The notes beneath the pieces were generated by a model. That model did not search any database. It was given only the letters and a program-made list of their open reading frames with translations, and was not told the DNA's origin. A stretch of 64,000 nt of DNA from Escherichia phage VEc74. The DNA lies in the sequence record MT932213.1, one strand, 5' to 3'. Shown one piece after another: positions 3,730-54,865 of this stretch (position 1 is the stretch's first letter; the number at the start of each line of letters is the position of its first letter). The translations under genes were made by a program, and so were the position numbers.

Positions 3730-5148
3730 TTATGGATAGGTATAGATGATACCAGTTTCTAAAGCAGTTTTATGAATGATGTATCCATTACGCGATTCTT
3801 GGACATCAACTTCTGGATAATCTTTCATCATCTTCTGAAGAGTGTAACGATGCAGGTAGTATTTACTATCTGGATCTTCAGTTTTCCAATCTTTACCTTC
3901 TTCAGTCATTTTTTGAATTTCATCCATAACCCACCAACCACACCAGATGTAAGCTGAGCTACGGTGTGGAAGAGGATGAACATAAGGTAATTCACCTTCT
4001 GGTTCTGGAGCAACTTTATCAGTTACCTGAACTTGACCTTCTGCCGTAATAGTTTTGCTATCATAATCAGCAGCAGTAACAGTTGCAGTAACTTCAATAG
4101 TTTGACTTCCAATAGATGAGGTATCAACGGTATATACATTAGTTGACCCTTCTACAGGAGAAGAATCTTTCTTCCATGAATATTCAATTTGCGCTTCTTC
4201 TGGAGCATCAGTGACATTAGCAGTAAATGTAGCCGAAGCATCTTGTTGAACGTTAATAGAAGGAGGAGTCAATGTAACCTGTGGATTCATTGTCTTCTTA
4301 TTAACCGTTAATGATACTTCATTAGAAGTAACTTCCTTTTCATTGTAATTTTCAGCAGTTACTTGAGCTACGCATTTAATTCTTTTTACTCCACTTGTAG
4401 TTGGAGTATAGTTAAATGTAGAGTTAGTTTCTCCACCAACTTGTGAATCATCTACATACCACTGATACGTAGCAGATGCTCCATCAGGTTGAGAAGCTAA
4501 GGCAGCAGTAAATTGAACTGGGGTTCCGATAACTCCCGCTGGAGGACTATCAGGAGTTACTGCCAAAGTAGTTGTCTGCTCCTTTTTATTAACAGTCAGT
4601 GATACTTCATTAGAAGTAACTTCTTTTGCATCATAATCTGTCGCGGTTACTTGAGCCACACACTTAATTGTTTTAACTCCGCTTGTGGTAGGAGTGTAAT
4701 TGAATGTAGCAGAAGTTGCTTCGCCCACAGGAGAACCGTCAACGTGCCATTGATACGTAGCAGATGCACCTGGTGGCTGCGAAGTTAAGGCAGCGGTAAA
4801 TTCAACAGCTGTTCCAATCACTCCAGCAGCAGGACTATCAGGAGTTACAGCTAAGGTGGTCGTTTGTGTCTTATTTTGAACTGTGATAGTTGTAGTAGCT
4901 TCTGCTGTTTCAGCATCAGTATCTGGGACTGGGTTTGTTGCAACTACTTTAATAGTCTTTTGACCGGCAGGTCCTTTTAGTACATAATTAAAAGTTGCTT
5001 CAGCTCCATCTTGTGGAACATCATCTACAGTCCAAGCATATGTAATAGGTCCATCTCCAGTTTGACCACTGGGTGTAGCAGTAAACTGCTGAGTCTGATC
5101 TATAACTCCAGTAGGTGTTTTAGGAGTTATATCAACTGTAAAAGCCAT
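3730..5148 (-). CDS. hoc: Highly antigenic outer capsid protein Hoc, with one extra Ig-like domain relative to T4 Hoc
   Basis: 472-aa ORF; N-terminal MAFTVDITPKTPTGVIDQTQQFTATPSGQTG and C-terminal capsid-binding region ...YIWCGWWVMDEIQKMTEEGKDWK... match T4 Hoc (376 aa in T4 as I recall). Confidence 0.88.
   Translation of the reverse strand: MAFTVDITPKTPTGVIDQTQQFTATPSGQTGDGPITYAWTVDDVPQDGAEATFNYVLKGPAGQKTIKVVATNPVPDTDAETAEATTTITVQNKTQTTTLAVTPDSPAAGVIGTAVEFTAALTSQPPGASATYQWHVDGSPVGEATSATFNYTPTTSGVKTIKCVAQVTATDYDAKEVTSNEVSLTVNKKEQTTTLAVTPDSPPAGVIGTPVQFTAALASQPDGASATYQWYVDDSQVGGETNSTFNYTPTTSGVKRIKCVAQVTAENYNEKEVTSNEVSLTVNKKTMNPQVTLTPPSINVQQDASATFTANVTDAPEEAQIEYSWKKDSSPVEGSTNVYTVDTSSIGSQTIEVTATVTAADYDSKTITAEGQVQVTDKVAPEPEGELPYVHPLPHRSSAYIWCGWWVMDEIQKMTEEGKDWKTEDPDSKYYLHRYTLQKMMKDYPEVDVQESRNGYIIHKTALETGIIYTYP
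4288..4863. repeat. In-frame tandem duplication (2 x 288 bp) inside hoc encoding two near-identical 96-aa Ig-like domains
   Basis: Protein repeats TTTLAVTPDSP[A/P]AGVIGT...EVTSNEVSLTVNKK occur twice consecutively; DNA copies are visibly near-identical. Confidence 0.85.
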
Positions 5149-16640: not shown

Positions 16641-16644
16641 CAAT

Positions 16645-16662
16645 GGGGACCGAAAGGTCCCC
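16645..16662. terminator. Bidirectional GC hairpin (ggggaccgaaaggtcccc) between convergent gene 54 and minus-strand ORF
   Basis: Perfect 7-bp stem, GAAA loop, T-run on plus strand. Confidence 0.7.
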
Positions 16663-16668
16663 ATATTT

Positions 16669-16959
16669 TTATTTACGGAATGAAATGAAAGCAGCAACTG
16701 AAGCAACTAAACTGTCTTCAATATAAACTTCAATTTTTACCGGAGCTTCTGACTCAAATTTACCTGTTACTACACCCTGGAAAATACTTTCAGTCTGTTC
16801 TGGCTTTGAAAAATTTTCAGAAGGAAAAATTCCGAACTTTTTATCTGTTCCAAAAATTTTAATAAATTCATCGTAAACTGCTTCATTAAAAGCGTTATCA
16901 GCAGGAATAACGCCTTCAACTACAAGTTCTTGACCTAAAAAGCGCAAAGAAGATTTCAT
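16669..16959 (-). CDS. Hypothetical protein (T4 alt.-3 position)
   Basis: 96-aa ORF with its own early promoter and RBS. Confidence 0.55.
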   Translation of the reverse strand: MKSSLRFLGQELVVEGVIPADNAFNEAVYDEFIKIFGTDKKFGIFPSENFSKPEQTESIFQGVVTGKFESEAPVKIEVYIEDSLVASVAAFISFRK

Positions 16960-16990: not shown

Positions 16991-17020
16991 ACTATAACAC
17001 AACATAAGGAACTTGTAAAC
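16991..17020 (-). promoter_or_regulatory. T4-type early promoter (-35 GTTTAC, 18-bp spacer, -10 TATAGT)
   Basis: Read on minus strand; part of a 50-bp promoter-leader module also present at 32517-32566. Confidence 0.6.
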
Positions 17021-19077
17021 TACATTTTGAACTTTTTAGACATTCCGTTGATGTTAACCAAAGAAGCTAAGATTTGAGAAACTTCGTTTTCCTCTTCTTT
17101 TGATTCTTCTACAAGGAATTGATTAAATCCAACCATTGGACGAACTTCACCAGTTTCCATTAGATGGTCGCCATCATATACTGATTCTTCTAATTGTTCA
17201 GAAGGAGGAACGATTGTACCTTCGATTAGATACTTGTTATAAGCCGTTTCTTTCATAAAGTACGTACTTACTTTATTAATCTTCAGTAAAATTCCACGAG
17301 GTAGAATAACTTCAGCTTCTGATGGAAATCCTGATAAATGACCTGGAACGATAACTTTGATTCGCTCAGCTCCTTTAATTACCATACCCACGCTAGTTTC
17401 AGCATCTTCATTGGCATATGTAGAATGACTACCCATATGCATCAAATGTTCTGCATCAACGGAACCTTCTCCTTCACCAGAAAATACTGCGCCGGAATCA
17501 TCTAGAGCCATATAGTTTTTACCATGCTCACCGAAGATATTTGGTTTAAGCGATGTCGATACGAAGTTCTTGAAATAGAACATTTTGTTTTCAATGTTAT
17601 GACGCAAAGTTTTAAAGGTAACTTCTTGTCCACGGTAAAGTGTAGTTCCTGGAGGAAGAACTGAACCTTTAGCGAATGCAGAATCCAACGTCTCGATGTG
17701 CTTAATAGCTCGTTCCATATATTCTTCACGGGTAGAATCTGGTTTACCCAAAAGGAACGAGTTCATTTCAACATATGAATCTGCACAATAATCTTCAATT
17801 ACATCAGACTCAGCCTGAGTCAGTCCTTTTGGAGTTACTTCAGTACTTGCATATTCATATGCCTGAGCAGCAGATTCATTAATCAATTTATAAATGCCAT
17901 TCATGACAAATTGAATAATAGCTGTCTTTTCATCTGGCGTAGCATTAGAACCTTTAACCAAATCATTGATAATTTTCTTAATAACATCAAAGCTATTAGA
18001 AATATTAATGTCAGCAAGATCGCTTAAAATTTTATCAGTTTTATAATCAAAGAATTCTTTATTCTTTAAATATTCTTGAGAACCTTGATATGTTATATCG
18101 CTTTGCAACTTGATAGATGGATCACGTAAACGTGCATGGGCTAATGCAATATGATTTCGGAAGTTTTCTAGTTCATAATCGCTAGATTTAAAACGAGAAG
18201 CACTTCTCATACCACCAATAGCTCCTTTGTTGAAGTTTGAACCAATCTGAATAACGCCAGAGTTCATTGGTCCTTCTGCTTTATATACCGGAACTTTAGA
18301 TTCAAACTCTTGATATTTCTTAGCAGCGAAGCTATCACCCTGAAGTGAAGCATCAACAGTAGAATATTGAGCTTGTGCTGCTAATCGACGACTAATTTTA
18401 GTTTTCTGAATAACAGCTTGATCCGTGCGCTTATCATTTTCTAAAGCAATAGAAGCAGCAACAGCGACAGCTTTAGGAACAGCATTACCTGTTTTAACGT
18501 CTACATAAACATCACCGACCTTTGATTCAACTTTTGTGAATAACTCAGTTGAAATAGGAGGTACACCTGGAATGTCTTCTAAATTGGCATTTTTACGGTA
18601 AACCATAATATATGCGTACTTTTTATCATAGTCCCAGATTTCCTTTAAAAGAACATATCGACCTGCTCCTTTAGTACGTACTAAACGGTCAGCAATAACT
18701 TGCATTTGACGAGCTGCGCCATTTGTTTTACTTTTTAGTACGCGGAATAAGCATGCGTCGATTTTATACTGCTTCATTGTTTGAAGAGCAGTATCAAAAA
18801 CCGCATTAATGACGCCAATTGGATTTCCACCCAAGTTTCTAAGCTTAACCAGCGATAATTTCTCGTTGACGCCTATCATTACGATATGCATCATTTTGTC
18901 GCCTGGCTTAACGTTTTTATTTGTATCACCGCCAGAGGTGTATGTACAAAATCTAAATCCAGGAAGCACACTTTCTTCGCCGGCTTGAATAGCAAAAATT
19001 TGTGGTATTTTATGCTTAGGATTTAAGTTAACAACCGGCGCCGAAGCGCCGTCAAATAATTCTGTAATAAGTTCCAT
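17020..19077 (-). CDS. Alt-like ADP-ribosyltransferase paralog (T4 alt.-2 position)
   Basis: 685-aa ORF; N-terminus MELITELFD... and blocks GxGRYVLLKEIWDYDKKYAYI, EDIPGVPxISTELFTKVESKVGDVY shared with Alt; C-terminal R / STS / EAEVILPRG ART motifs (YRGQ, FVSTSL, SEAEVILPRG). Confidence 0.8.
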   Translation of the reverse strand: MELITELFDGASAPVVNLNPKHKIPQIFAIQAGEESVLPGFRFCTYTSGGDTNKNVKPGDKMMHIVMIGVNEKLSLVKLRNLGGNPIGVINAVFDTALQTMKQYKIDACLFRVLKSKTNGAARQMQVIADRLVRTKGAGRYVLLKEIWDYDKKYAYIMVYRKNANLEDIPGVPPISTELFTKVESKVGDVYVDVKTGNAVPKAVAVAASIALENDKRTDQAVIQKTKISRRLAAQAQYSTVDASLQGDSFAAKKYQEFESKVPVYKAEGPMNSGVIQIGSNFNKGAIGGMRSASRFKSSDYELENFRNHIALAHARLRDPSIKLQSDITYQGSQEYLKNKEFFDYKTDKILSDLADINISNSFDVIKKIINDLVKGSNATPDEKTAIIQFVMNGIYKLINESAAQAYEYASTEVTPKGLTQAESDVIEDYCADSYVEMNSFLLGKPDSTREEYMERAIKHIETLDSAFAKGSVLPPGTTLYRGQEVTFKTLRHNIENKMFYFKNFVSTSLKPNIFGEHGKNYMALDDSGAVFSGEGEGSVDAEHLMHMGSHSTYANEDAETSVGMVIKGAERIKVIVPGHLSGFPSEAEVILPRGILLKINKVSTYFMKETAYNKYLIEGTIVPPSEQLEESVYDGDHLMETGEVRPMVGFNQFLVEESKEEENEVSQILASLVNINGMSKKFKM

Positions 19078-19080
19078 GAT

Positions 19081-21171
19081 TTATCCTTGAACGAACTTGT
19101 AAGGCATGTTTGTAATATCTATGCAAGACGCAATAATTCCAAGAGATGATTCTACTTTCTGTTTAACATTTGATGAAACAAATGATGCAAAGTCAACTCT
19201 ATCTTCTATATCACCTGTCATTGTAACCAATTCACCAGTTTCCATTAAATGGTCTCCGTCATAGATTACCGATTCAGTGAGTTCTTCTGTGGTCATAACT
19301 TCAGCTTGAATGAGTTTTGTATTATTAGACGTGGTTCCGTCATTATTAGAAGCATCAATTATTTTATTAACTTTGACCATCAATCCGCGCGGTAGAATAA
19401 CTTCAGCTTCTGTTGCTATTCCGAGACTTCCTGGATATACAACATTAACTTTATGAGCTCCATCAATTGCCCATCCTATTTGAACTTTAACGTATTCAGG
19501 ATTTTCTTTATACGCTCTTATTTCGTTTGGATTAATAGTTATTCCTTCTTCATTTTTATCAACTGTTAATTCATTACGAGCTTCTGGTTCTAAAAGACCA
19601 ATACCAGCATGTGTAATTCCAAAACGTCCAAAAATGATAGGAGTTAAAGAAGTAGATACAAAATTTCTGAAATAGAACACTTTATTTTTAACTAGTGCTT
19701 CGTATATAGGAGCAGTCATACTTTGAGCACGATAAACTGTAATGCCTTCCGGTATGCGGTCACCATTTTCAAAAGCTGAATCTAAATTATTTATAGCAGA
19801 TTCAATTTCTTTTTCACTCATTACATCATATCGTTCTGGATTGTAACGACCTAAAAGAAGATTATTAATGTCTGTATATCCTGAACCGCAATATTCTCTA
19901 ATGCCACGCTTTTGTGATGGAGTATATTTAGAACCATCACGGGCAATAGTAATATCAATCATTGGACCAGCACCAATTCCAGAAAAGCTATAAATCATTC
20001 GTTTGAGGAATTTAGTTTTTGCTGCATTCCAGGCATTTTTAGTTATTTCTCCCCAGACTTCATCTGGCTGCCCTTTACGAGTTTTATTATGTTTATCAAG
20101 CCAATTATCTTTATATTCTTCAAAGAGTTGATTAACAGCTGCTGCGTATTTCTCTAAACATTTTATTGAAGTAGTTGGTTCATTTTTAATCGCATTAAGA
20201 ATTACATCTTTAATTTTTTCAGAAACTTCATCAACCTCACTTTTTGAAAAGAATTTATATTCATAGTGAAGTTCATTTGCAGTTCCTTCAGCAATAATTT
20301 TTGCTGCCTTAGTTTTAGAAGCTAATGAATTAATTCCAAGCTTCATTTCTTCTGCTTCGGGAATTAAAGGAGCAGTAGCAGGTTTATTAAAATTAGCTGC
20401 GGTAGATTCATACTTCTGGAATAATTCACTTTCAAATCTAGAAGATTCTAATGATTGACTTTGCGCAATTGCTCTACGGGAAATTTTAACTTTAACGATT
20501 ACAGCTTGATCAGAACGTTTATCATTTTCTTGCGCAATAGATGCTGCAATTGCCTCATTTTTAGTTACTTGAGCTCCAGTATCTTTATTGATATAAACAT
20601 CACCGACCTTCGATTCAACTTTAGTAAAGAGTTCGGTACTAATTTCCGGAACTCCTGGAATGTCTTCTAGTGATACATTTTTGCGATGTATAAGAATATA
20701 TGCATACTTTTTATCATAATCCCAGAGTTCCTTAAGAAGGACGTATCTGCCACCTGAACGACTACGGATAAGTCTATCAGCAATAACTTGAATTTGTCGA
20801 GCTTGACCAGCAGTTTTAGACTTAAGAATACGGAGCATACAAGCATCAATTTTATATTGACGCATTGTTTGCATTGCAACAGTAAAAACTGAATTGATAT
20901 AATTAATTGGACTTGGACCAAGACCTTTCAATTTAGCAATTGAACCTTTAGCAGTTAATGTAAAAGGAACAATATGCATCATTTTATCGCCCATCTTTAA
21001 ATCACGATTAGTATCACCTCCAGATGTATAGGTACATAAACGAAAGCCTGGTTGTTCAATTGCATCATCAACGTGAACTGAAAAAATTTGCGGTATTTTC
21101 TTCTTTGGATTTAAGTTTGTAATCGGAAGAGTAGTATCTTCGTCAAATAATTCTGTAATGAGTTCCATCAT
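19081..21171 (-). CDS. alt: Alt ADP-ribosyltransferase (head-packaged, RNA polymerase-modifying)
   Basis: 696-aa ORF; MELITELFDEDTTLPITNL...KKKIPQIFSVHVDDAIEQPGFRLCTYTSGGDTNRDLKMGDKMMHIV matches T4 Alt; ART motifs YRAQ, FVSTSL, ATEAEVILPRG. Confidence 0.9.
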   Translation of the reverse strand: MMELITELFDEDTTLPITNLNPKKKIPQIFSVHVDDAIEQPGFRLCTYTSGGDTNRDLKMGDKMMHIVPFTLTAKGSIAKLKGLGPSPINYINSVFTVAMQTMRQYKIDACMLRILKSKTAGQARQIQVIADRLIRSRSGGRYVLLKELWDYDKKYAYILIHRKNVSLEDIPGVPEISTELFTKVESKVGDVYINKDTGAQVTKNEAIAASIAQENDKRSDQAVIVKVKISRRAIAQSQSLESSRFESELFQKYESTAANFNKPATAPLIPEAEEMKLGINSLASKTKAAKIIAEGTANELHYEYKFFSKSEVDEVSEKIKDVILNAIKNEPTTSIKCLEKYAAAVNQLFEEYKDNWLDKHNKTRKGQPDEVWGEITKNAWNAAKTKFLKRMIYSFSGIGAGPMIDITIARDGSKYTPSQKRGIREYCGSGYTDINNLLLGRYNPERYDVMSEKEIESAINNLDSAFENGDRIPEGITVYRAQSMTAPIYEALVKNKVFYFRNFVSTSLTPIIFGRFGITHAGIGLLEPEARNELTVDKNEEGITINPNEIRAYKENPEYVKVQIGWAIDGAHKVNVVYPGSLGIATEAEVILPRGLMVKVNKIIDASNNDGTTSNNTKLIQAEVMTTEELTESVIYDGDHLMETGELVTMTGDIEDRVDFASFVSSNVKQKVESSLGIIASCIDITNMPYKFVQG

Positions 21172-21191: not shown

Positions 21192-21199
21192 TATTTATA
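21192..21199 (-). promoter_or_regulatory. Late promoter TATAAATA (minus strand) upstream of alt
   Basis: Reverse complement of plus-strand tatttata, about 20 nt upstream of alt ATG with RBS AGAGAGGA between. Confidence 0.6.
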
Positions 21200-21206
21200 A
21201 AATTAA

Positions 21207-21220
21207 AGGCCCGAAGGCCT
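21207..21220 (-). terminator. GC hairpin (aggcccgaaggcct) downstream of the gene 30 operon
   Basis: Perfect stem, T-rich on minus strand. Confidence 0.5.
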
Positions 21221-21409
21221 TTAATAATCTATAGGTAAGAGAGTACGATATATTTCAAACTTTGGACCTTTTTCATAAGCATCAAAAGTTTCTGTGAATT
21301 TATTATAAGCATATGCATCGATAAATTCAATCATGATTTGTGATACAGAAGTAGAAACATCTCCACCTTCTTTTTGAGCCACGACAATTGTTTCTAAGTA
21401 AGCTTTCAT
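21221..21409 (-). CDS. Hypothetical small protein
   Basis: 62-aa ORF, ATGA overlap with the ligase stop. Confidence 0.4.
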   Translation of the reverse strand: MKAYLETIVVAQKEGGDVSTSVSQIMIEFIDAYAYNKFTETFDAYEKGPKFEIYRTLLPIDY

Positions 21410-28756: not shown

Positions 28757-28989
28757 AGTACGCCATACACCCTTTGTGCTTCAACTAATCCATCAAAATC
28801 CAGTTTAAGATGCGATATTTGATCGCCATCGCCTGGATTCACAATTACTAATACTGAACGAGGAGTTTCGGTAATAACACGAACCGATGTTTCAGGAAAT
28901 CGTTCAGAAACCTTATTTACTAATTCCTGTGCAAATAGTTTAACTTTTTCTTGGAATTCTTTAACAGTAATTGGTTTTTCACTTAGCAT
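28753..28989 (-). CDS. Hypothetical protein (cd.2 position)
   Basis: 78-aa ORF. Confidence 0.5.
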   Translation of the reverse strand: MLSEKPITVKEFQEKVKLFAQELVNKVSERFPETSVRVITETPRSVLVIVNPGDGDQISHLKLDFDGLVEAQRVYGVL

Positions 28990-29510
28990 GTTGATCCCAG
29001 CTCCTTACTTTCAACATTTTTAACTAATTTGACAGAAACTAATTCAGCATCTTGAGTAATCATTACCGGACCTTCTTCATACTCTTCAAGATATTCTAGA
29101 GCTTTCTTTTTAGCTTCTTCCTTCGTATCAGTTTGAGCATAGATATAAAACATACAACCAGTAATACCTACTACTTTCCACTTAATTTCTTTATCAGTTT
29201 TAATTTCAAATTTACTGGCAGAATCATCTTTTTGAACTTCTTCGAAAAAAGAATATTCTAACATATAAGCAATTGAAAATAACGGGCTAACTTTATAGGA
29301 TTCGCCCATTACATCAACAGCTTTATACCAACAGTCATCAATTTCGCGTTTAATGCTAATAACATTTTTCGCAGGATCTATTTTTACTTTAAATGAATTT
29401 TCTCCAATAAACTGAGCAATTCGTTTATTAGCCCCGCAAGTTTCATTAAAAATATCTTTATATCCAGCTTTAAAGCGATAAACCTTATCTTCTTCAAACC
29501 ATTCGCTCAT
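28983..29510 (-). CDS. Hypothetical protein (cd.3 position)
   Basis: 175-aa ORF with RBS and early promoter. Confidence 0.5.
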   Translation of the reverse strand: MSEWFEEDKVYRFKAGYKDIFNETCGANKRIAQFIGENSFKVKIDPAKNVISIKREIDDCWYKAVDVMGESYKVSPLFSIAYMLEYSFFEEVQKDDSASKFEIKTDKEIKWKVVGITGCMFYIYAQTDTKEEAKKKALEYLEEYEEGPVMITQDAELVSVKLVKNVESKELGSTC

Positions 29511-29912: not shown

Positions 29913-31134
<1,222 letters not shown>

Positions 31135-34184: not shown

Positions 34185-35354
34185 TTAAAAGTATTTTTTA
34201 AAACTCATCATAACTTTATCATCAACATCATTATCAATCTGCGCTACAAGATAAGATGACAGTTCTACTTCTTGCGGTGCAGATTGAACATTATCAGAAT
34301 TAAGATATTCACGAATCCAAGGATATGGATGTTTAACCGGAGCATCGGTAATTGGGCATGGAAGACCACACTGTTTCATACGAGATACAGTTAAGTAATC
34401 AATAAAGCTCCACATGCTATTTGTATTTAATCCAGGAACATCGCCATCTTTAAATAAATGAACTGCCCAATCTTTTTCTTGGCGGTTAACTTCCATGAAA
34501 ATATCAACTGCTTCTTGTTCACACTCTTGAGCAATTTTAACCCATTCATCGCCATCAGTACCGGATTGAAGCTGACGAATAATATATTGGGTGCCTTTAA
34601 GGTGAAGCTGCTCATCACGTGCAATGAACTTCATAATCTTGGCATTACCTTCCATGATTTCCATGTTCTTATGGAAGTTAAAGGTACATGCAAAAGATAC
34701 ATAAAAACGAATAGCTTCTAAGGCATTAATAACGTGCAAACAGAGGTAAAGAGATTTCATTAAAGCACGTTTAGTACATGCAACAACTTTGCCTAACTCT
34801 TCTTTACGAAATCCTTCTGATAAAATTCCTTCATATTCTTCTTTAGCATTTTCCCAATAACGAGTTTTAACCAGAACATCATCATAATATCGTCCGATAG
34901 ATTCAGCGCGCTTCATAATTGCGTCATCTAATACAATCTCATCAAATACCTTCGATGGATCTGTATAAAGATTTCGCATAATATGAGTATATGAACGAGA
35001 GTGAATAGTTTCACTGAAAGTCCATGTAGCAACCCATGTATCTAATGAAGGGTCTGAAAGCAATGACATAAGTACAGCAGACGGCGCACGACCCTGAATG
35101 CTATCCAAAAGTGATTGATACTTCAGATTATTAGTAAAAATATTTTGCTGATACTGAGGAAGTTTATTAAATTGTGCAGCATCCATCATTAAGTTTACTT
35201 CTTCAGGCCGCCAGAAAAATGACAATTGCTTTTCGGTCAAATCTTCAAAAACTTTATGGCGTTGAATATCATAACGCGCAATACCAAGACCTGAACCAAA
35301 AAACATAGGTTCTTTTAAAACATCAACTGGATTTGTATTAAAAACTGTGCTCAT
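34185..35354 (-). CDS. nrdB: Ribonucleotide reductase small subunit, uninterrupted (no intron)
   Basis: 389-aa continuous ORF with di-iron R2 features; T4 NrdB is 388 aa. Confidence 0.9.
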   Translation of the reverse strand: MSTVFNTNPVDVLKEPMFFGSGLGIARYDIQRHKVFEDLTEKQLSFFWRPEEVNLMMDAAQFNKLPQYQQNIFTNNLKYQSLLDSIQGRAPSAVLMSLLSDPSLDTWVATWTFSETIHSRSYTHIMRNLYTDPSKVFDEIVLDDAIMKRAESIGRYYDDVLVKTRYWENAKEEYEGILSEGFRKEELGKVVACTKRALMKSLYLCLHVINALEAIRFYVSFACTFNFHKNMEIMEGNAKIMKFIARDEQLHLKGTQYIIRQLQSGTDGDEWVKIAQECEQEAVDIFMEVNRQEKDWAVHLFKDGDVPGLNTNSMWSFIDYLTVSRMKQCGLPCPITDAPVKHPYPWIREYLNSDNVQSAPQEVELSSYLVAQIDNDVDDKVMMSFKKYF

Positions 35355-35405
35355 AAATTTTCCACTTAGTTAATAGATAGTGACTCGTCCATGAGTCAAA
35401 TTATA

Positions 35406-37670
35406 TCATAATTTACAGGATGAACAATCTTCAGCTTTTGGAGTTTCTATTTCATAATCATCAGTACCAGAACCATCACGGGTATTATGATAATAGAAAT
35501 TTTTTCCGCCAAAATACCAGAAATACAAAAGGTCATCAATCATTATTGACATTGGAACCTTTCCCTTTGGAAAAATCTGCGGATCATAGTATGTATTTGC
35601 TGAAGCTGATTGACATACCCATTTCAGCATAATAGCTACCTGCGTAAGATAAGGTTTATTACCTTTCTTAGCTAATTTCCATGTATAATCATATAGGTCT
35701 ATGTTATGCTCAATATTGGGCACGACTTGATTAAAGGAGCCCTCTTTTGATTCTTTAACAGAGACTGGTCCACGTGGAGGCTCGATACCGTTTGTACTGT
35801 TAGAAACTTGGGAAGATGACTCACATGGCATAAGTGCTGATAATGTGCTATTACGGATGCCAAAGAGCTTAAGGTCTTCCCGCAGCGACGACCAGTCACA
35901 AACGTATTTTGGAGCTGCGATTTGGTCAATCTTTTTATTGTACCAGTCGATAGGTAATTCGCCTCGAGACCAACGAGTGTCTGAATAATATTCGCAAGGT
36001 CCTTTTTCTTTGGCGAGCTTAATGGATGCTTTAATGAGTCCATACTGTAATCTCTCAAATAGTTCATGTGTTAAATCGTTAGCATCTTCATAAGAAGCAA
36101 AGTTACTTGCCAGCCAAGCTGCATAGTTAGTAACACCTACACCGAGGTTACGACGCTTTTTAGCTTTTTCTGCTTCAGGAACTGGATATCCTTGGTAATC
36201 CAACAGATTATCAAGAGCACGAACTTGAACTTCTGCCAATTCATTAATTTTATCTTGGTCTTGCCAGTCAAAATTATCTAGTACGAATGCAGAGAGAGTA
36301 CACAATCCAATTTCAGCATCAGGACTATTTACATCATTTGTTGGAATAGCAATTTCACAACACAAGTTACTCTGACGAATAGGTGCCTTTTCACGAATAA
36401 ACGGAGTATAGTTATTCGTATTATCAATGAACTGTACATAAATCCTTGCTGTTCCTGAACGTTCAGTCATGAGCAATTCAAATAATTCACGGGCTTTAAT
36501 ACGCTTTTTACGAATATTAGGGTCTTTTTCTGCTGCTTCGTATAATTCACGGAAACGGTCTTGGTCTTTAAAATAAGAATAATAAAGCTCTCCACCCATT
36601 TCATGCGGACTGAACAAAGTAATGTAATCGTTCTTTCCAAAACGTTCCATCATTAGGTCATTCAGTTGAACACCATAATCCATATGACGGATACGGTTTT
36701 CTTCTACGCCTTTGTTATTTTTCAAAACGAGAAGATTTTCAACTTCCAAATGCCAAATAGGATAATAAGCAGTAGCAGCGCCGCCACGAATTCCACCCTG
36801 TGAACATGATTTAACTGCAGTCTGAAAATGTTTCCAAAAAGGAATAACACCAGTATGGCGTACTTCACCCATGCCAATCTTAGAACCTTCGGCACGAATC
36901 ATACCAACGTTAATACCAATTCCAGCGCGTTTAGAGATATATTCAACAATTGAAGCGGAAGCCTTATTGATAGACTTTAATGAATCACCTGCCTCAATAA
37001 CAACACATGAACTAAACTGTCGAGTCGGAGTACGGCAACCAGCCATAATAGGAGTTGGCAATGAAATCTGTCGAGTAGATACTGCTTCATAAAAACGGAT
37101 AACATGTTTTAATCTATCAACAGGTTCATCTTGATGTAATGCCATTCCAATAGTCATAAATGCAAACTGTGGAGTTTCATAAATTTGACCAGTGGTTTTA
37201 TCTTTAACTAGATATTTTTCTTTTAATTGCATCGCCCCGGAATAAGTAAATTCCATATCCCGCTCGTGCTTAATTTTTGATTCTAAAAATGTAATTTCTT
37301 CTGCTGAATATTTTGACAATAATTCAGGGTCATATTTACCTTCATTTACACAGTAAGAAATATGGTCAATAAATGAACGTGGTTCATACTGCCCATAAAC
37401 ATGCTTACGAAGAGCAAACATTAAACAGCGTGCAGCTACATATTGATAATCAGGCTCTTCAACCGAAATAGAATTCGCAGCGGCCTTAATGACAATAGTC
37501 TGAATATCATCAGTTGTCATTCCATCACGGAGATAAGATTTAATATTTTCATATAATTCATAAGGATCTACTGATGTTCCCTCAGCTGCCCAAGATAAAA
37601 CTTTAATAATTTTTTGTGGGTCAAAGCTCTGAGAAACACCACTACTTTTGATAACATTAATTAATTGCAT
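35406..37670 (-). CDS. nrdA: Ribonucleotide reductase large subunit
   Basis: 754-aa ORF, T4 NrdA length; class Ia active-site region NLCCEIA. Confidence 0.92.
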   Translation of the reverse strand: MQLINVIKSSGVSQSFDPQKIIKVLSWAAEGTSVDPYELYENIKSYLRDGMTTDDIQTIVIKAAANSISVEEPDYQYVAARCLMFALRKHVYGQYEPRSFIDHISYCVNEGKYDPELLSKYSAEEITFLESKIKHERDMEFTYSGAMQLKEKYLVKDKTTGQIYETPQFAFMTIGMALHQDEPVDRLKHVIRFYEAVSTRQISLPTPIMAGCRTPTRQFSSCVVIEAGDSLKSINKASASIVEYISKRAGIGINVGMIRAEGSKIGMGEVRHTGVIPFWKHFQTAVKSCSQGGIRGGAATAYYPIWHLEVENLLVLKNNKGVEENRIRHMDYGVQLNDLMMERFGKNDYITLFSPHEMGGELYYSYFKDQDRFRELYEAAEKDPNIRKKRIKARELFELLMTERSGTARIYVQFIDNTNNYTPFIREKAPIRQSNLCCEIAIPTNDVNSPDAEIGLCTLSAFVLDNFDWQDQDKINELAEVQVRALDNLLDYQGYPVPEAEKAKKRRNLGVGVTNYAAWLASNFASYEDANDLTHELFERLQYGLIKASIKLAKEKGPCEYYSDTRWSRGELPIDWYNKKIDQIAAPKYVCDWSSLREDLKLFGIRNSTLSALMPCESSSQVSNSTNGIEPPRGPVSVKESKEGSFNQVVPNIEHNIDLYDYTWKLAKKGNKPYLTQVAIMLKWVCQSASANTYYDPQIFPKGKVPMSIMIDDLLYFWYFGGKNFYYHNTRDGSGTDDYEIETPKAEDCSSCKL

Positions 37671-38227: not shown

Positions 38228-39088
38228 TTATACCGCCATCTTTCCTTTAATTGGCGGGTGAGATACATAGTTGTTAAGAACGAAATCTTTAGGTCTAAGT
38301 TTAAGAACATATTTTAATTGTTCTTTAGTAGAAAGATATCGGAATTTATAAGGTAGACCACTTATTACCAGCTCACAAAGCTCTTTAGGTTCACGCCTCA
38401 AAATTTCTTTACACTGTTCTACGTGATTCATATAGATATGAGTATTACCACCAGAAAATATCAAATCTCCTGGAATAAGATTACACATCTTAGCTACAAT
38501 ATGAACTAACGTAGCATATGATGCAATATTAAATGGAAGACCGAGAAAAACATCTACCGAACGTTGATACCACTGCAAATCCAAATAGCCATTACGCACA
38601 TTAAACTGATAGAACATATGACAAGGCGGTAATGCCATATATTTAAGTTCAGCTGGATTCCATGCTGAAACAATTTGACGCCTATCATTTGGCAGTTTTT
38701 TAATACGATCAACAACTTCTATAATTTGGTCTACACCACCAAAATCACGCCACTGTTTTCCATAAATTGGACCAAGTTCACCGCTATGATACCCTAAATC
38801 TTTTGCCTGATTTTCGTAATTTTCATCCCAAACTGTTTTGCCTTGGATTAACGAATCGTGTTGAATTAATCGTAAATCATTGACATTTGTGCTTCCCGAT
38901 AAAAACCATATTAGCTCAGCGATGCAAGCTTTCCAAGCGAGTTTCTTAGTCGTTACTGCAGGAAAACCTTTAGTTAAATCCCAGCGTAATTTAGTACCGA
39001 ACAAAGCAATTGTTCCTGTGCCTGTTCGGTCATCGGTTTCATAGCCATTTTCAAAAATGTCTTTAATTAAATCTTGGTATTGTTTCAT
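38228..39088 (-). CDS. td: Thymidylate synthase, uninterrupted (no group I intron)
   Basis: 286-aa continuous ORF, T4 Td length; active-site region LPPCHMFYQF. Confidence 0.95.
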   Translation of the reverse strand: MKQYQDLIKDIFENGYETDDRTGTGTIALFGTKLRWDLTKGFPAVTTKKLAWKACIAELIWFLSGSTNVNDLRLIQHDSLIQGKTVWDENYENQAKDLGYHSGELGPIYGKQWRDFGGVDQIIEVVDRIKKLPNDRRQIVSAWNPAELKYMALPPCHMFYQFNVRNGYLDLQWYQRSVDVFLGLPFNIASYATLVHIVAKMCNLIPGDLIFSGGNTHIYMNHVEQCKEILRREPKELCELVISGLPYKFRYLSTKEQLKYVLKLRPKDFVLNNYVSHPPIKGKMAV

Positions 39089-39133
39089 TTAGTACCTTAT
39101 ATAAATTATAATACATTTTATGAAGCTAAATAA

Positions 39134-39493
39134 TCAATACGGTTTAGCATCAAATTTTCTTTCGATTTCAGGAGTGAAATATAATTCTTTACCGCGTTTA
39201 GAAAAGCGACCAATAATATGATAATTATTCTCATCAAACGTAATATTGCCAATATCCATGGCTTTCAACCAAATATCGATATTTCTATCCAGTTTTATAT
39301 CAAAATTCCAATACGGAGAACTATTACCGAAAATACTGCAAGCGGATTCAGTGAAACAACTACTATAAATCTTGTCTTTAGGAACTACTAATTGATAGAC
39401 GCCTTTAATAAACTGAGGACCCTGCCATTTAGGTTGTTTCGCGTCTTTTTCTAATAGAATAGGGTAATAATTAAAATTCATATTTTCCGCCAC
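39134..39493 (-). CDS. Hypothetical protein inserted between frd and td (ATG start at 39481 gives 115 aa; track start at 39493 is GTG)
   Basis: ORF MNFNYYPILLEKDAKQPKWQGPQFIKGVYQLVVPKDKIYSSCFTESACSIFG...; no recognisable motif. Confidence 0.5.
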   Translation of the reverse strand: MAENMNFNYYPILLEKDAKQPKWQGPQFIKGVYQLVVPKDKIYSSCFTESACSIFGNSSPYWNFDIKLDRNIDIWLKAMDIGNITFDENNYHIIGRFSKRGKELYFTPEIERKFDAKPY

Positions 39494-39501
39494 GTGTTAT
39501 T

Positions 39502-40328
<827 letters not shown>

Positions 40329-40338
40329 ATTATTTTCC

Positions 40339-40581
40339 TTAAACAGACTTTTTCACAATTTTCCAATCAGCTTTAAACTGCTCGACGTCAGAATGGTAAA
40401 TCCAGAATCCTGCGCTTTCTCCGTCTTCATAAAGAGGACATCCATCACATTCATCTTCCCACCCCATGTCACGTAAAAGATGTTCAGCTTTTTCAACAAG
40501 TTCAGAATCTTTACCGATGATATTAAAATACCATTTACCTCTAACTTCCGAATCTTTGATGCTATGGCGTTGTAATCTCAT
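40339..40581 (-). CDS. Hypothetical protein (frd.2 position)
   Basis: 80-aa ORF with early promoter upstream. Confidence 0.5.
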   Translation of the reverse strand: MRLQRHSIKDSEVRGKWYFNIIGKDSELVEKAEHLLRDMGWEDECDGCPLYEDGESAGFWIYHSDVEQFKADWKIVKKSV

Positions 40582-40607
40582 TTTATTCTCCTCAAGTTGA
40601 TAAGGCT

Positions 40608-40637
40608 ATAGTATCATTACAATAGCCTGTTGTAAAC
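40608..40637 (-). promoter_or_regulatory. Early promoter (-35 GTTTAC, 18-bp spacer, -10 TACTAT)
   Basis: Read on minus strand. Confidence 0.55.
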
Positions 40638-40639
40638 AT

Positions 40640-40867
40640 TTATTTTTGAATTAAGCCCATATAAAATTTAGCATCTTCAGGATACATGCCATCACAATAC
40701 TCATTGGTCATAAAACTGATAAGGTCTTCAAGAGGACCTTGGACTTCAATTTGAATACTAAAGAATTGGGTATCTTTAATGTAAGCCATACTCAAAGAAG
40801 GATAACGATTGCGGATAACTTCATAAGTGTATTCAAAATCAACAATATCAATATTAACCTTAGCCAT
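40640..40867 (-). CDS. Small acidic protein, paralog of the 41336-41566 ORF
   Basis: 75-aa ORF from [26 protein letters not shown]...; RBS GAGGAAAATAAA; track ORF is longer but its start lies upstream of the promoter. Confidence 0.55.
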
Positions 40868-42620: not shown

Positions 42621-42703
42621 TTTTATTTCCTTTTTAATTTAATTAACAGTTGGTGCTATGACGATGTATGACCTCATAGCTGGTCAGTGAGATAATTATA
42701 ATC
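42621..42703 (-). promoter_or_regulatory. Gene 32 translational operator: pseudoknot plus unstructured A/U-rich tract in the 5' leader
   Basis: Minus strand reads ...UGACCAGCUAUGAGGUCAUACAUCGUCAUAGCAC... then UUAAUUAAAUUAAAAAGGAAAUAAAAAUG, matching the T4 autoregulatory leader as I recall it. Confidence 0.65.
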
Positions 42704-42711
42704 TATTTATA
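42704..42711 (-). promoter_or_regulatory. Late promoter TATAAATA (minus strand) for gene 32
   Basis: Reverse complement of plus-strand tatttata, directly downstream of gene 59 stop. Confidence 0.6.
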
Positions 42712-42719
42712 ATAAGCAA

Positions 42720-50718: not shown

Positions 50719-53700
50719 ATGGCTACTTTAAAACAAATACAATTTAAAAGAAGCAAAACTGCAGGAGCACGTCCTGCCGCTTCAGTATTAGCCGAAGGTG
50801 AATTGGCTATAAACTTAAAAGACCGTGTACTTTTTACTAAAGATGACCAAGGAAATATTATTGATCTGGGTTTTGCTAAAGGCGGTAGTATTGACGGGAA
50901 TGTTATTCATATAGGAAACTATAACCAAACTGGTGATTATACTTTAAATGGCGCATTAACTCAGACAGGTAATTTTAATTTAACTGGTATTGCTCGAGTA
51001 ACTCGCGATATTATTGCCGCTGGGCAGATTATGACTGAAGGCGGTGAACTTATTACAAAAAGTTCAGGTACAGCACATGTTCGTTTTTTCGATGGCAATA
51101 GTCGCGAACGTGGAATCATTTATGCCCCGGCTAATGATGGTTTAACTACACAAGTACTTAATATCAGGGTTCAAGACTATGCCGCTGGTAGCGAAAGCAC
51201 TTATGCATTTTCAGGCAGTGGCCTATTTACTTCACCTGAAGTATCAGCATGGAAATCTATTTCGTCTCCACAAATTCTGACCGATAAAGTTATTACAAAT
51301 GGGAAGAAGACAGGCGATTATGATATCTATTCATTATCAAATAACACTCCAATGGCAGAAGGCGAAACGGCTATTAACCACCTCCGTGTTATGCGAAATG
51401 CTGTAGGAGCAGGTATTTTCCACGAAGTTAATGTTAATGACGGAATAACCTGGTATTCCGGAGATGGCTTAGACACTTATCTTTGGTCGTTTAACTGGGC
51501 CGGTGGATTGAAAGCGGGTCGTTCTATTGCTGTTGGCCTTCCTCACGGTTCTAAAAATTATTCAGAAATGGGCACGGCTTCTATTGCTTTAGGAGATAAT
51601 GATACCGGATTTAAATGGCATCAGGATGGATATTATTTCAGCGTCAATAATGGAACGAAAACATTTTTATTTAGTCCTAGTGAAACAACTAGTCTAAGAA
51701 AATTTGTAGCTGGATATTCTACTAACGGAACCGATTTAACGACTCCTCCAACTGAAAACTATGCTCTTGCTACTGTCGTGACATATCACGATAATAACGC
51801 GTTTGGAGATGGTCAGACTCTTTTAGGATATTATCAAGGCGGTAATTATCATCACTATTTCCGCGGTAAAGGTACTACAAACATTAATACTCACGGCGGT
51901 TTGTTAGTTACTCCAGGTAATATTGATGTTATTGGCGGTTCTGTTAATATTGATGGTAGAAATAATGCTTCTACACTGATGTTTAGAGGTAACACGACCG
52001 GAGCTAGTTCAGTTGATAATATGACAATTTCTGTGTGGGGCAATACGTTTACTAATCCTAGTGTAGGTGATCGTAAAAACGTCATGGAAATTTCTGATGC
52101 AACTAGTTGGATGAGCTATATTCAAAGACTTACAACAGGTGAAGTAGAAATGAACGTTAACGGTTCATTTGAATCATCTGGTGTTACTGCTGGAAATAGA
52201 GGAGTTCACACAACGGGCGAAATTTCATCTGGGGCTGTGAATGCACTTCGTATTTGGAATGCAGATTATGGAGCCATTTTTAGACGTTCAGAAGGAAGTC
52301 TTCATATTATTCCAACTGCTTATGGTGAAGGCAAAAATGGTGATATCGGTCCACTTCGTCCGTTTAGTATGGCTTTAGATACCGGTAAAGTTACTATTCC
52401 AGATTTACAATCAAGTTACAATACGTTTGCTGCTAACGGTTATATTAAATTTGTTGGTCATGGAGCAGGTGCCGGCGGTTATGACATTCAATATGCTCAA
52501 GCAGCTCCCATTTTCCAGGAAATCGATGATGATGCCGTAAGTAAATATTACCCAATTGTTAAGCAAAAATACCTTCAAGGTAAAGCTGTTTGGTCTTTAG
52601 GTACTGAAATTAATTCGGGAACATTTGTTTTACACCATATCAAAGAAGATGGTTCACAAGGCCATACATCAAGATTTAACGCTGACGGTACAGTTAACTT
52701 CCCGGATAACGTTCAGGTCGGTGGTGGTGAAGCTACTATTGCTCGTAATGGTAATATTTTCTCGGATATTTGGAAATCGTTTACTTCTGCCGGTGATACT
52801 ACAAATATTCGCGATGCTATTGCGACTCGTGTTTCGAAAGAAGGCGACACGATGACCGGTAAGTTGACTTTATCTGCTGGAGATGATGCCCTTGTTTTAA
52901 CTGCAGGCGTGGGTGCTTCATCACACATCCGTAGTGATGTAGGTGGTATAGGTAACTGGTATATAGGCAAAGGCGGCGGCGACAATGGTCTAGGTTTTTA
53001 CAGTTACATTACACAAGGCGGTGTATACATAACAAATAACGGCGAAATAGCGCTTTCTCCTCAAGGTCAAGGAACATTTAATTTTAATAGAGACCGCCTT
53101 CATATAAACGGTACACAATGGACTGCGCACCAGGCCGGCGATTGGGGAAATCAATGGCGCCAGGAAGCTCCTGTATTTGTGGATTTTGGTAATGTTGGTA
53201 ATGATAGTTATTATCCTATTATTAAAGGAAAATCTGGTATTACTAATGAAGGTTATATATCTGGTGTAGATTTTGGTATGCGCCGTATCACTAATACATG
53301 GGCCCAAGCTATTATCCGTGTTGGTAACCAGGAAAACGGTCATGACCCACAAGCTGTCTACGAATTCCACCACAATGGAGTTATGTATGCTCCTAACATG
53401 GTTAAAACTGGAGCAAGATTATCAGCTGGCGGTGGTGACCCGGTATGGACTGGGCCATGTCTTGTTATTGGTGATAATGATACTGGATTAGTTCATGGTG
53501 GTGATGGACGAATTAACATGGTTGCAAATGGAGTGCATATTGCTTCATGGTCAGCTGCTTATCAGATCCATGAAGGTCTTTGGGATTCAACTGGTGCTTT
53601 ATGGACTGAAACAGGAAGAGCTATTATTTCTTATGGGCATTTAGTCCAACAAAGTGATGCCTATTCCACATATGTTCGAGATGTTTATGTCCGTTCTGAT

Positions 53701-54030
53701 ATTCGTGTTAAAAAAGACCTTGTTAAATTTGAAAATGCTTCTGAGAAACTTTCCAAAATTAATGGTTACACTTATATGCAGAAGCGAGGCCTAGATGAAG
53801 AAGGCAATCAGAAATGGGAACCTAACGCCGGTTTAATTGCTCAAGAAGTTCAAGCTATTTTACCAGAATTAGTTGAAGGCGACCCGGATGGTGAAGCTTT
53901 ACTTCGTTTGAACTATAACGGTGTAATTGGTTTAAATACAGCTGCAATCAATGAGCATACCGCAGAAATTGCAGAACTTAAGTCAGAGATTGAAGAACTT
54001 AAAGCATTAGTTAAATCATTGTTAAAATAA
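50719..54030 (+). CDS. 37: Long tail fibre distal subunit gp37 with C-terminal intramolecular-chaperone-like domain
   Basis: 1103-aa ORF; N-terminus [52 protein letters not shown] as T4 gp37; C-terminus ...SDIRVKKD...[38 protein letters not shown]. Confidence 0.9.
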
Positions 54031-54035
54031 TAAGA

Positions 54036-54049
54036 GGGGCTTCGGCCCC
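54036..54049 (+). other. GC hairpin (ggggcttcggcccc) between genes 37 and 38 without a strong T-run
   Basis: Perfect 5-bp stem; immediately followed by the gene 38 RBS GGAGG. Confidence 0.4.
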
Positions 54050-54061
54050 TTGGAGGTTTAT

Positions 54062-54835
54062 ATGGCAGTTGAAGGACCGTGGGTAGGATGGTCTGCAAGG
54101 GTACAGACTGGAGACCCTTGGATGGCAGGAGCAGCCGTAAGATTAAGAATGGGTGTTCCATTTTGGATGAGTAATATGATAGGTCGATCTGTTGAAGTAA
54201 TTCACACGCTTGGAGCAGACCATAACTTCAATGGTCAGTGGTTCCGAGATAGATGTTTTGAGGCAGGTAGTACACCTATAGTGTTTAATATCACTGGAGA
54301 TTTAGTATCATATTCTAAAGATGTTCCTTTATTCTTCATGTACGGAGATACACCGAATGAATATGTTCAACTGAATATACATGGTGTAACGATGTATGGC
54401 CGTGGCGGGAATGGCGGTAGCAATAGTCCTGGCTCAGCTGGGGGTCATTGTATTCAAAATGATATTGGCGGGAGACTAAGAATTAATAATGGCGGAGCTA
54501 TTGCTGGAGGCGGCGGAGGCGGTGGCGGCGGTAACAGGGGTAGACTAGTATTTGGTGGTGGCGGTGGTCGCCCATTCGGTAGTGGCGGGTCTTCCTCTCA
54601 TATGAGTGCTGGTGCAACCGCCGGCACTATTTACGCTCCGGGTGCAGGATCTGTCGGTGAGGGGTCTCTTAGTGCATATACAGGCGGGAATGGCGGTGAA
54701 GTTGGCTCCGCAGGAGGTAGATGTAATACTCACGGTACCGGTGCAGAATATGACGGCGGCGCTGGTGGTTATGCCGTCATAGGGTCTGCTCCAACGTGGA
54801 TAAATGTTGGAGCAATATATGGTCCAAGAGTATAA
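54062..54835 (+). CDS. 38: T2-type receptor-recognising adhesin gp38 with glycine-rich motifs
   Basis: 257-aa ORF from ATG 54062 (track start 54050 is TTG); [43 protein letters not shown] and C-terminal [15 protein letters not shown] typical of T2-family gp38. Confidence 0.85.
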
Positions 54836-54865
54836 TTTGAATAAATATCCTTAAAAGGAGGGTCT

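Follow-up and report, generated by a model that had tools for sequence, protein, structure and literature searches.

Alt of bacteriophage T4 is a head-packaged, injected NAD:arginine mono-ADP-ribosyltransferase. It is incorporated through the prohead core at ~40 copies per head, and the prohead protease gp21 cuts it at ITE-6 and at LTE-619, the latter site shown by mass spectrometry (PMC5694885); it is injected along with the DNA and acts on RNA polymerase, among other host proteins, by ADP-ribosylation (PMC5512222). T4 ModA and ModB, also ADP-ribosyltransferases of T-even phages, belong with it to the Alt/VIP2 clade (PMC5512222). Duplications of alt were listed in 2006 for RB49, 44RR, and T4 (Nolan et al., PMC1524935), and a 2026 paper on phages 6phi13 and SHFML-11 described a pair of Alt-like paralogs sharing 43.29% identity and proposed expanded and probably different targets for them (PMC13600099). 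Here we analyze the alt locus in a stretch of 64,000 nucleotides (nt) from Escherichia phage VEc74 (sequence record MT932213.1), referred to below as the window, in which alt is followed on the minus strand by a second Alt paralog of 685 amino acids. The two adjacent open reading frames (ORFs) that a preliminary description had reported on the minus strand, at 19081-21171 and 17020-19077, are both present. The tandem pair is real but ordinary, being the routine, annotated, ancestral state of the T-even phages, and was already known. The observation made in the preliminary description is confirmed and its interpretation partly supported, the enzymology and the packaging signals being in agreement with it; the idea that another enzyme is injected and acts on a different range of targets is plausible and is already in print (PMC13600099). 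We consider it probable, judging from the sequences, that the pair is ancestral and that the second gene specifies a late, head-packaged, injected ADP-ribosyltransferase with at least partly different targets.

Sequence and Fold of the Two Alt Proteins

By their sequences, both genes encode full-length members of the Alt family of ADP-ribosyltransferases (ARTs). The two proteins align over their full length with 41% identity (BLASTP, E = 2e-158), and the profile phrog_802, "Alt-like RNA polymerase ADP-ribosyltransferase," matches alt end to end over residues 1-694 (E = 8e-273) and the second paralog over residues 1-685 (E = 6e-256, with positions 2-674 of the 674 in the profile covered). The Pfam family PF03496 (ADPrib_exo_Tox) is found in alt with an E-value of 1.6e-36 and in the second paralog with one of 5.9e-20, and PF26846 and PF03496 are both precomputed on all close homologs. 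The two proteins have four parts in common, namely a 6-residue N-propeptide ending in ITE, a conserved α/β domain of ~235 residues, a helical and highly variable middle that leads into an ART domain of the R-S-E class with an E-x-E motif, and a C-terminal tail after an L-x-E motif. Identity between the paralogs is 54-76% over residues 1-250, 16-24% over residues 251-450, and 33-44% in the catalytic part, so that the earlier statement that the central third is divergent is correct.

The R / S-T-S / E-x-E signature reported for both proteins lies at the places and in the order described. In alt, YRAQ is at position 479, FVSTS at 503, and EAEVILPRG at 587, with R480, S505/S507, and E587/E589 as the catalytic residues, and in the second paralog YRGQ is at 481, FVSTS at 505, and EAEVILPRG at 587. 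Residues R482, S507, S509, E587, and E589 of the second paralog are invariant in an alignment of 19 homologous sequences spanning 42-95% identity. The N terminus MELITELFD, described as shared, is present in both proteins, but the 696-residue ORF itself starts with MMELITELFD; because the Alt proteins of T4, RB32, and T2 all begin with MELITELFD, the true start of alt is probably the second ATG, at 21168, which gives a protein of 695 residues.

An AlphaFold (AF2) model of the second paralog has a mean predicted local distance difference test score (pLDDT) of 74.7, with values mostly of 75-92 over residues 416-625. When this model was compared with the PDB by Foldseek, Vis, Certhrax, CDTa, C3bot, VIP2, and iota toxin were matched at a probability of 1.0 and a target template-modeling (TM) score of ~0.6 (E = 1.9e-6 for Vis), whereas a sequence search of solved structures with the second paralog gave no match at E ≤ 0.01, and only the fold-level search succeeded. 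The second paralog is thus predicted to have an NAD-binding ART fold of the C3/Vis/iota-like type, and the earlier assignment of the 685-residue ORF as an ART withstands the structure prediction. In enzymes of the R-S-E class, the E-x-E motif goes with an arginine acceptor, and by this rule the second paralog is most likely an arginine ADP-ribosyltransferase.

The Second Gene in T4 and Other Phages with Losses

At the position of the second gene, reference T4 has only alt.-1 (61 residues) and alt.-2 (67 residues). The match of these two ORFs is with residues 1-117 of the second paralog, not with alt, and their PHROG families score 2e-40 and 1e-37 on the second paralog versus 1e-21 and 2e-19 on alt. 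The preliminary description had asked whether T4 carries an intact or a decayed equivalent, and the alignment answers that it has a decayed remnant only. Comparison of T4 with the window places a deletion of ~1.7 kb in T4 between two copies of the 9-bp repeat CTAAAAAGT. The T4 gene is broken twice: a frameshift/stop splits it, and the deletion removes the middle, the catalytic domain, and most of the C terminus. In the GenBank note for T4, alt.-1/alt.-2 is taken for a partial duplication of alt, covering its first part; because the alignment, the PHROG scores, and the CTAAAAAGT junction all point to the second paralog, we reject this description in favor of a remnant left by deletion within a full-length paralog.

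The T4-type deleted state is found in about a fifth of the matching phage records, and in having lost the second gene T4 departs from what is usual among its relatives. Escherichia phage sutha has a different deletion, in which only the last 128 nt of the second gene are kept (5001-5128 of its sequence), with a 38-residue ORF directly after alt. The deletions in T4 and sutha being distinct, there have been at least two independent losses of the second gene; in at least one further record, that of Elenatom, it is split.

Distribution, Age, and Selection

The gene for the 685-residue protein matches 497 phage records, 401 of which carry at least 80% of it at a nucleotide identity of at least 94%, and the 90%-identity protein cluster of the second paralog has 772 member sequences. 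In T2 and RB32 the RefSeq name is "Alt-like RNA polymerase ADP-ribosyltransferase," and the gene is annotated in many other phages too. These counts and annotations, together with the occurrence of the tandem pair in JS10, do not support a view of the second paralog as something special; the 685-residue ORF is essentially a routine full-length ortholog among its close relatives. In JS10 the order is ligase, alt.1, a 694-residue Alt, a 3-nt gap, a 707-residue protein like the second paralog, a DUF5498 gene, and gene 54. A metagenome contig has the same gene order, and its two paralogs share 63% and 74% identity with the two proteins of the window. Homologs from other T-even lineages, JS10 among them (P0011-P0015), are 45-50% identical to the second paralog and 32-39% identical to alt. 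From such comparisons, the split between alt and the second paralog is judged to predate the divergence of Tequatrovirus from the JS10 lineage.

Seven orthologs of the second gene are uninterrupted ORFs of 685 codons. In pairwise comparisons among them, the ratio of non-synonymous to synonymous substitution rates (dN/dS) is 0.03-0.06, with dS reaching 0.28 and up to 105 synonymous differences against 20 non-synonymous ones. The pooled ratio of the corresponding proportions (pN/pS) is 0.02 in the N-terminal domain, 0.09 in the middle region, 0.045 in the ART domain, and 0.04 in the C-terminal tail. Where it is present, the second gene is under strong purifying selection and is probably functional.

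The upstream gene itself comes in two allele classes. The T2/RB32 type encodes 695-697 residues and is found in the window, T2, RB32, Shfl2, P922, CT01, and sutha, and the T4 type encodes 682-684 residues and is found in T4 and SHFML-11. The two classes are 72% identical overall, near-identical in residues 1-250 and past residue 600, and 24-38% identical at residues 251-400. In SHFML-11 an intact second paralog stands beside a T4-type alt; the second gene is therefore present or absent independently of the alt allele. The alt locus looks like a conserved delivery chassis, made up of the N-terminal domain and the two propeptides, into which effector cassettes may be exchanged.

Expression Signals

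The sequence TATAAATA is the T4 late promoter box. An exact match is found upstream of alt (Table 1), and we infer that it is used as the late promoter of this gene. The hairpin that adjoins it was not flagged by a simple terminator scan; it is likely a terminator that isolates alt from early/middle transcription upstream. A terminator upstream of alt is kept in five of six T4-like genomes (Nolan et al. 2006, PMC1524935).

Read along the minus strand, the junction of the two genes consists of AAGGA (19088-19084), the stop codon TAA of alt (19083-19081), the three nucleotides atc, and the ATG of the second gene (19077). An identical 3-nt gap is found in RB32, T2, Shfl2, P922, CT01, SHFML-11, SH7, JS10, and one metagenome contig, and it leaves no room there for a separate promoter for the second gene. 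The two genes had been described as translationally coupled; the 3-nt gap and a ribosome-binding site within the 3' end of the upstream gene are indeed there, and they suggest coupling rather than demonstrate it.

A further TATAAATA box lies within alt at 19788-19795 on the minus strand, 711 nt upstream of the start codon of the second paralog. Its use as a late promoter within alt, serving the second gene, is treated as unproven, since the window has 12 such boxes versus 9.2 expected by chance and this one may be a chance match.

Packaging and Processing Signals

Both proteins of the window have an N-terminal propeptide with a gp21 site (L/I-x-E), MELITE/LFD, the predicted cut falling after ITE6. 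At the position aligned with LTE619/SVIYDGDH of T4 Alt, alt has LTE632/SVIYDGDH, and the second paralog has LEE631/SVYDGDHLMETGE. In the AF2 model of the second paralog the pLDDT is <50 from residue 629, consistent with a disordered end. Trimming is predicted to leave a mature second paralog of 69.2 kDa and a mature alt product of 70.0 kDa.

Proposed Function and Alternative Explanations

The reading that we favor would run as follows. Both genes would be transcribed late as one message from the TATAAATA box upstream of alt, and the second gene would be translated from its own Shine-Dalgarno sequence, starting 3 nt past the alt stop codon. Both proteins would then be taken into the prohead core and trimmed at both ends by the gp21 protease, giving products of ~70 and ~69 kDa, and both enzymes would be injected along with the DNA. 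Once inside the host, the divergent middle and ADP-ribosylating toxin turn-turn (ARTT) loop regions would steer the two enzymes toward host proteins that differ at least in part. Different substrates are suggested because the middle regions are nearly unrelated and the residues before E-x-E differ, being GFPSEAE in the second paralog, GIATEAE in alt of the window, and APSNEME in T4 Alt.

Several points weigh against this proposal. What suggests different targets is sequence divergence by itself, and arginine specificity is here the class rule of the E-x-E enzymes. A literature search for the function of the second paralog or its detection in virions returned annotation-level mentions only; the literature searched contained no biochemical or genetic work on this protein and nothing to show that it is made, packaged, active, or directed at other host proteins than Alt, and a paper on injected proteins does not discuss Alt (PMC12373910). 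The one virion proteome read for a phage that carries both genes, SH7, was a shallow one with 13 structural proteins in total; it detected the upstream Alt by two peptides but no peptide from the second paralog. Last, at least two losses and at least one split record imply that the second gene is dispensable on at least some hosts.

The shallow SH7 proteome, with the upstream Alt only, would suit a second paralog that is an active late ADP-ribosyltransferase but is not packaged, acting within the producing cell late in infection or on some hosts only, and the sequence indeed holds no proof of head incorporation. This we regard as unlikely, since the second paralog has in common with the packaged Alt both gp21 motifs and the tightly constrained N-terminal domain of ~235 residues (pN/pS 0.02), and a LEE631/SVYDGDHLMETGE junction matching the known Alt cleavage site is not obviously needed by a cytoplasmic late enzyme. 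The repeated loss of the gene in T4 and sutha without loss of viability raises instead the thought of a redundant back-up that has the targets of Alt, RNA polymerase alpha and others, and adds dose rather than specificity; the equal architecture, E-x-E motif class, and expression unit of the two paralogs are in keeping with it. Simple redundancy is, however, argued against by the long retention of two diverged copies, for the split is older than the divergence of Tequatrovirus and JS10 and purifying selection acts on each lineage. The paralogs are moreover only 16-24% identical at residues 251-450 and 33-44% identical in the catalytic domain, with different residues before E-x-E, and we give the redundant enzyme a lower chance still than the unpackaged one. 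The T4 fragments and the occasional split or deleted record could finally be taken as signs of a decaying, functionless duplicate, a pseudogene in the making. We reject this as scarcely credible; seven uninterrupted orthologs, invariant catalytic residues, and a near-full-length gene in 401 records oppose it, and the dN/dS of 0.03-0.06 together with the intact ORFs effectively refutes it.

If the second paralog is a distinct injected enzyme, its target might be a component of host defense or of translation rather than RNA polymerase alpha, and the field would have overlooked an injected ADP-ribosyltransferase of about four in five Tequatrovirus phages, because nearly all Alt biochemistry has been done in T4, where the gene is deleted. 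The N-terminal domain and the two propeptides would then serve for delivery, as a chassis that takes up one or another variable cassette made of the middle and catalytic parts; no fewer than three cassettes were encountered, those of T4-type Alt, T2-type Alt, and the second paralog. The combined proposal, namely a distinct injected effector with non-overlapping substrates, overlooked by the field, on a chassis that swaps cassettes, is a tentative one that we are more inclined to doubt than to accept. As a discovery the tandem pair itself has little value, being annotated in reference genomes; alt duplications in T4-like phages were noted in 2006, and the idea of two paralogs with ~43% identity and probably different targets was printed in 2026. 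Because T4 has deleted the gene, this model phage is unable to settle the role of the second enzyme, for which T2, T6, and RB32 are suitable.

The alt Locus and Other Features of the Window

The phage from which the window comes is a Tequatrovirus of the T2/RB32 type and a relative of T4. A 4.9-kb alt region matches 544 phage records, with vB_Eco_BCPEco_001 as the best nucleotide match (98.6%), and matches T2, RB32, RB33, and T6 at ~97-98%. Between 16.6 and 21.5 kb, the minus-strand order is alt.1, alt, the second Alt paralog, and alt.-3; DNA ligase lies upstream, and the plus-strand baseplate genes 48 and 54 converge on the alt locus from downstream. This arrangement, between DNA ligase/alt.1 and alt.-3/gene 54 and on the strand opposite the baseplate genes, is conserved in the same order in T4, RB32, T2, SH7, and JS10.

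The neighboring gene alt.-3 does not encode an ADP-ribosyltransferase. T4 mutants that escape the CmdTAC defense system carry Alt.-3 proteins extended at the C terminus (PMC11618068). The promoter-like sequence between the second paralog and alt.-3 is retained in T4 across the deletion junction, and given this match to an early/sigma-70-type promoter of its own, alt.-3 may be expressed apart from the late alt pair. The hairpin between the converging genes is likely the 3' end of the alt, second paralog, and alt.-3 transcripts.

Elsewhere in the window, segD, the nrdB intron with I-TevIII, mobE, the td intron with I-TevI, and segG of T4 are absent, as is typical of T-even phages other than T4. 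At the blastn level, 28988-29508, 30818-31132, 39091-39494, 40103-40865, and 50885-54841 have no T4 counterpart. The four short, insert-like stretches among these fall in the cd, pseT, and frd regions, and 50885-54841 is the distal tail-fiber region (gene 37/38), which is not T4-like.

Table 1. Features of the alt locus and related sites, in window coordinates unless another sequence is named
Feature	Position	Strand	Basis or remark
Bidirectional hairpin terminator	16643-16664	both	9-bp stem, 6 GC pairs; between converging genes 54 and alt.-3; likely
alt.-3, 96 residues, DUF5498	16669-16959	-	Pfam PF17602, E = 1.4e-64; phrog_1739; T4 annotation
Promoter-like sequence, sigma-70/T4-early type	16991-17019	-	TTTACA-17 nt-TATAGT with TG extension; consensus match only; between second-paralog stop and alt.-3
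Second Alt paralog, 685 residues	17020-19077	-	named alt.-2 in RB32; intact ortholog of the T4 alt.-1 + alt.-2 remnant
Predicted C-terminal propeptide, second paralog, residues 632-685	17023-17184	-	after LEE631/SVYDGDHLMETGE; alignment with T4 Alt
Repeat copies, CTAAAAAGT	~17031-17039 and ~18730-18738; T4 locus sequence 5105-5113		T4-window comparison
Predicted ART catalytic domain, second paralog, residues 416-625	17203-17832	-	PF03496 over residues 416-620, E = 5.9e-20; Foldseek
E589 codon, second paralog	17311-17313	-	
E587 codon, second paralog	17317-17319	-	
S509 codon, second paralog	17551-17553	-	
S507 codon, second paralog	17557-17559	-	
R482 codon, second paralog	17632-17634	-	
N-terminal α/β domain, second paralog, residues 1-238	18364-19077	-	Pfam PF26846, Tevenvirinae_ADPRT; includes 6-residue propeptide MELITE
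alt, 695 residues	19081-21168	-	696 residues if the extra ATG at 21171 is used; T2/RB32-type allele
Shine-Dalgarno sequence AAGGA of second gene	19084-19088	-	within last codons of alt, 6 nt before ATG at 19077
T4-type late promoter box, TATAAATA	21192-21199	-	exact match; 24 nt upstream of alt start codon, directly after hairpin
Hairpin AAAGGCC-TTCG-GGCCTTT	21205-21222	-	GC-rich; read from sequence; downstream of alt.1, immediately upstream of putative alt promoter
alt.1, 62 residues	21221-21409	-	ORF list; Pfam PF24647, Phage_blade, E = 7.5e-29 (recent family)
Sites of absences relative to T4	760-821, 34687-34690, 35354-35410, 38539-38547, 42683-42719		
SH7 upstream Alt gene	119150-121210 (SH7)		
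SH7 second paralog gene	117089-119146 (SH7)		

Comparison with Known Systems

T4 Alt (NP_049811, 682 residues) has the domain order of both proteins of the window. Common to all three are also the propeptide MELITE, the N-terminal domain, and the catalytic motifs R / S-T-S / E-x-E, as well as the sequence SV(I)YDGDHLMETGE at the C-terminal junction. Its locus is also that of alt in the window, between alt.1 and the second paralog. Against T4 Alt, alt of the window has an overall identity of 72%, falling to 24-38% in residues 251-400, and the second paralog one of 42%; T4 Alt has EME where both window proteins have EAE. With the Alt proteins of RB32 and T2, the identity of alt in the window rises to 98-99%.

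The 685-residue ORF has direct orthologs in RB32 alt.-2 (YP_803136) and T2 KMC23_gp211 (YP_010073850), which have the same length, position, and 3-nt gap. At the nucleotide level these are ~97.6-97.8% identical to the second gene of the window, with 6-7 non-synonymous differences, and nothing of substance differs. T4 alt.-1 and alt.-2 (NP_049810 and NP_049809) correspond to codons 1-117 of the second paralog.

Among the other relatives, ModA and ModB are small, early, and unpackaged, and unlike the Alt proteins they are without the N-terminal domain or the propeptides. The C3-like toxins, Vis, and the binary toxins (iota, CDTa, VIP2, and C2-I; PF03496) have the catalytic fold and the R-S-E motif class in common with the phage proteins, although the sequence identity is only 14-20%. 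The phage proteins differ from these toxins in having a Tevenvirinae-specific N-terminal domain, a helical middle, and propeptides removed by a protease, as is predicted for the second paralog. Delivery differs as well, proceeding by ejection from the phage head, as is predicted for the second paralog, and not through a toxin B component.

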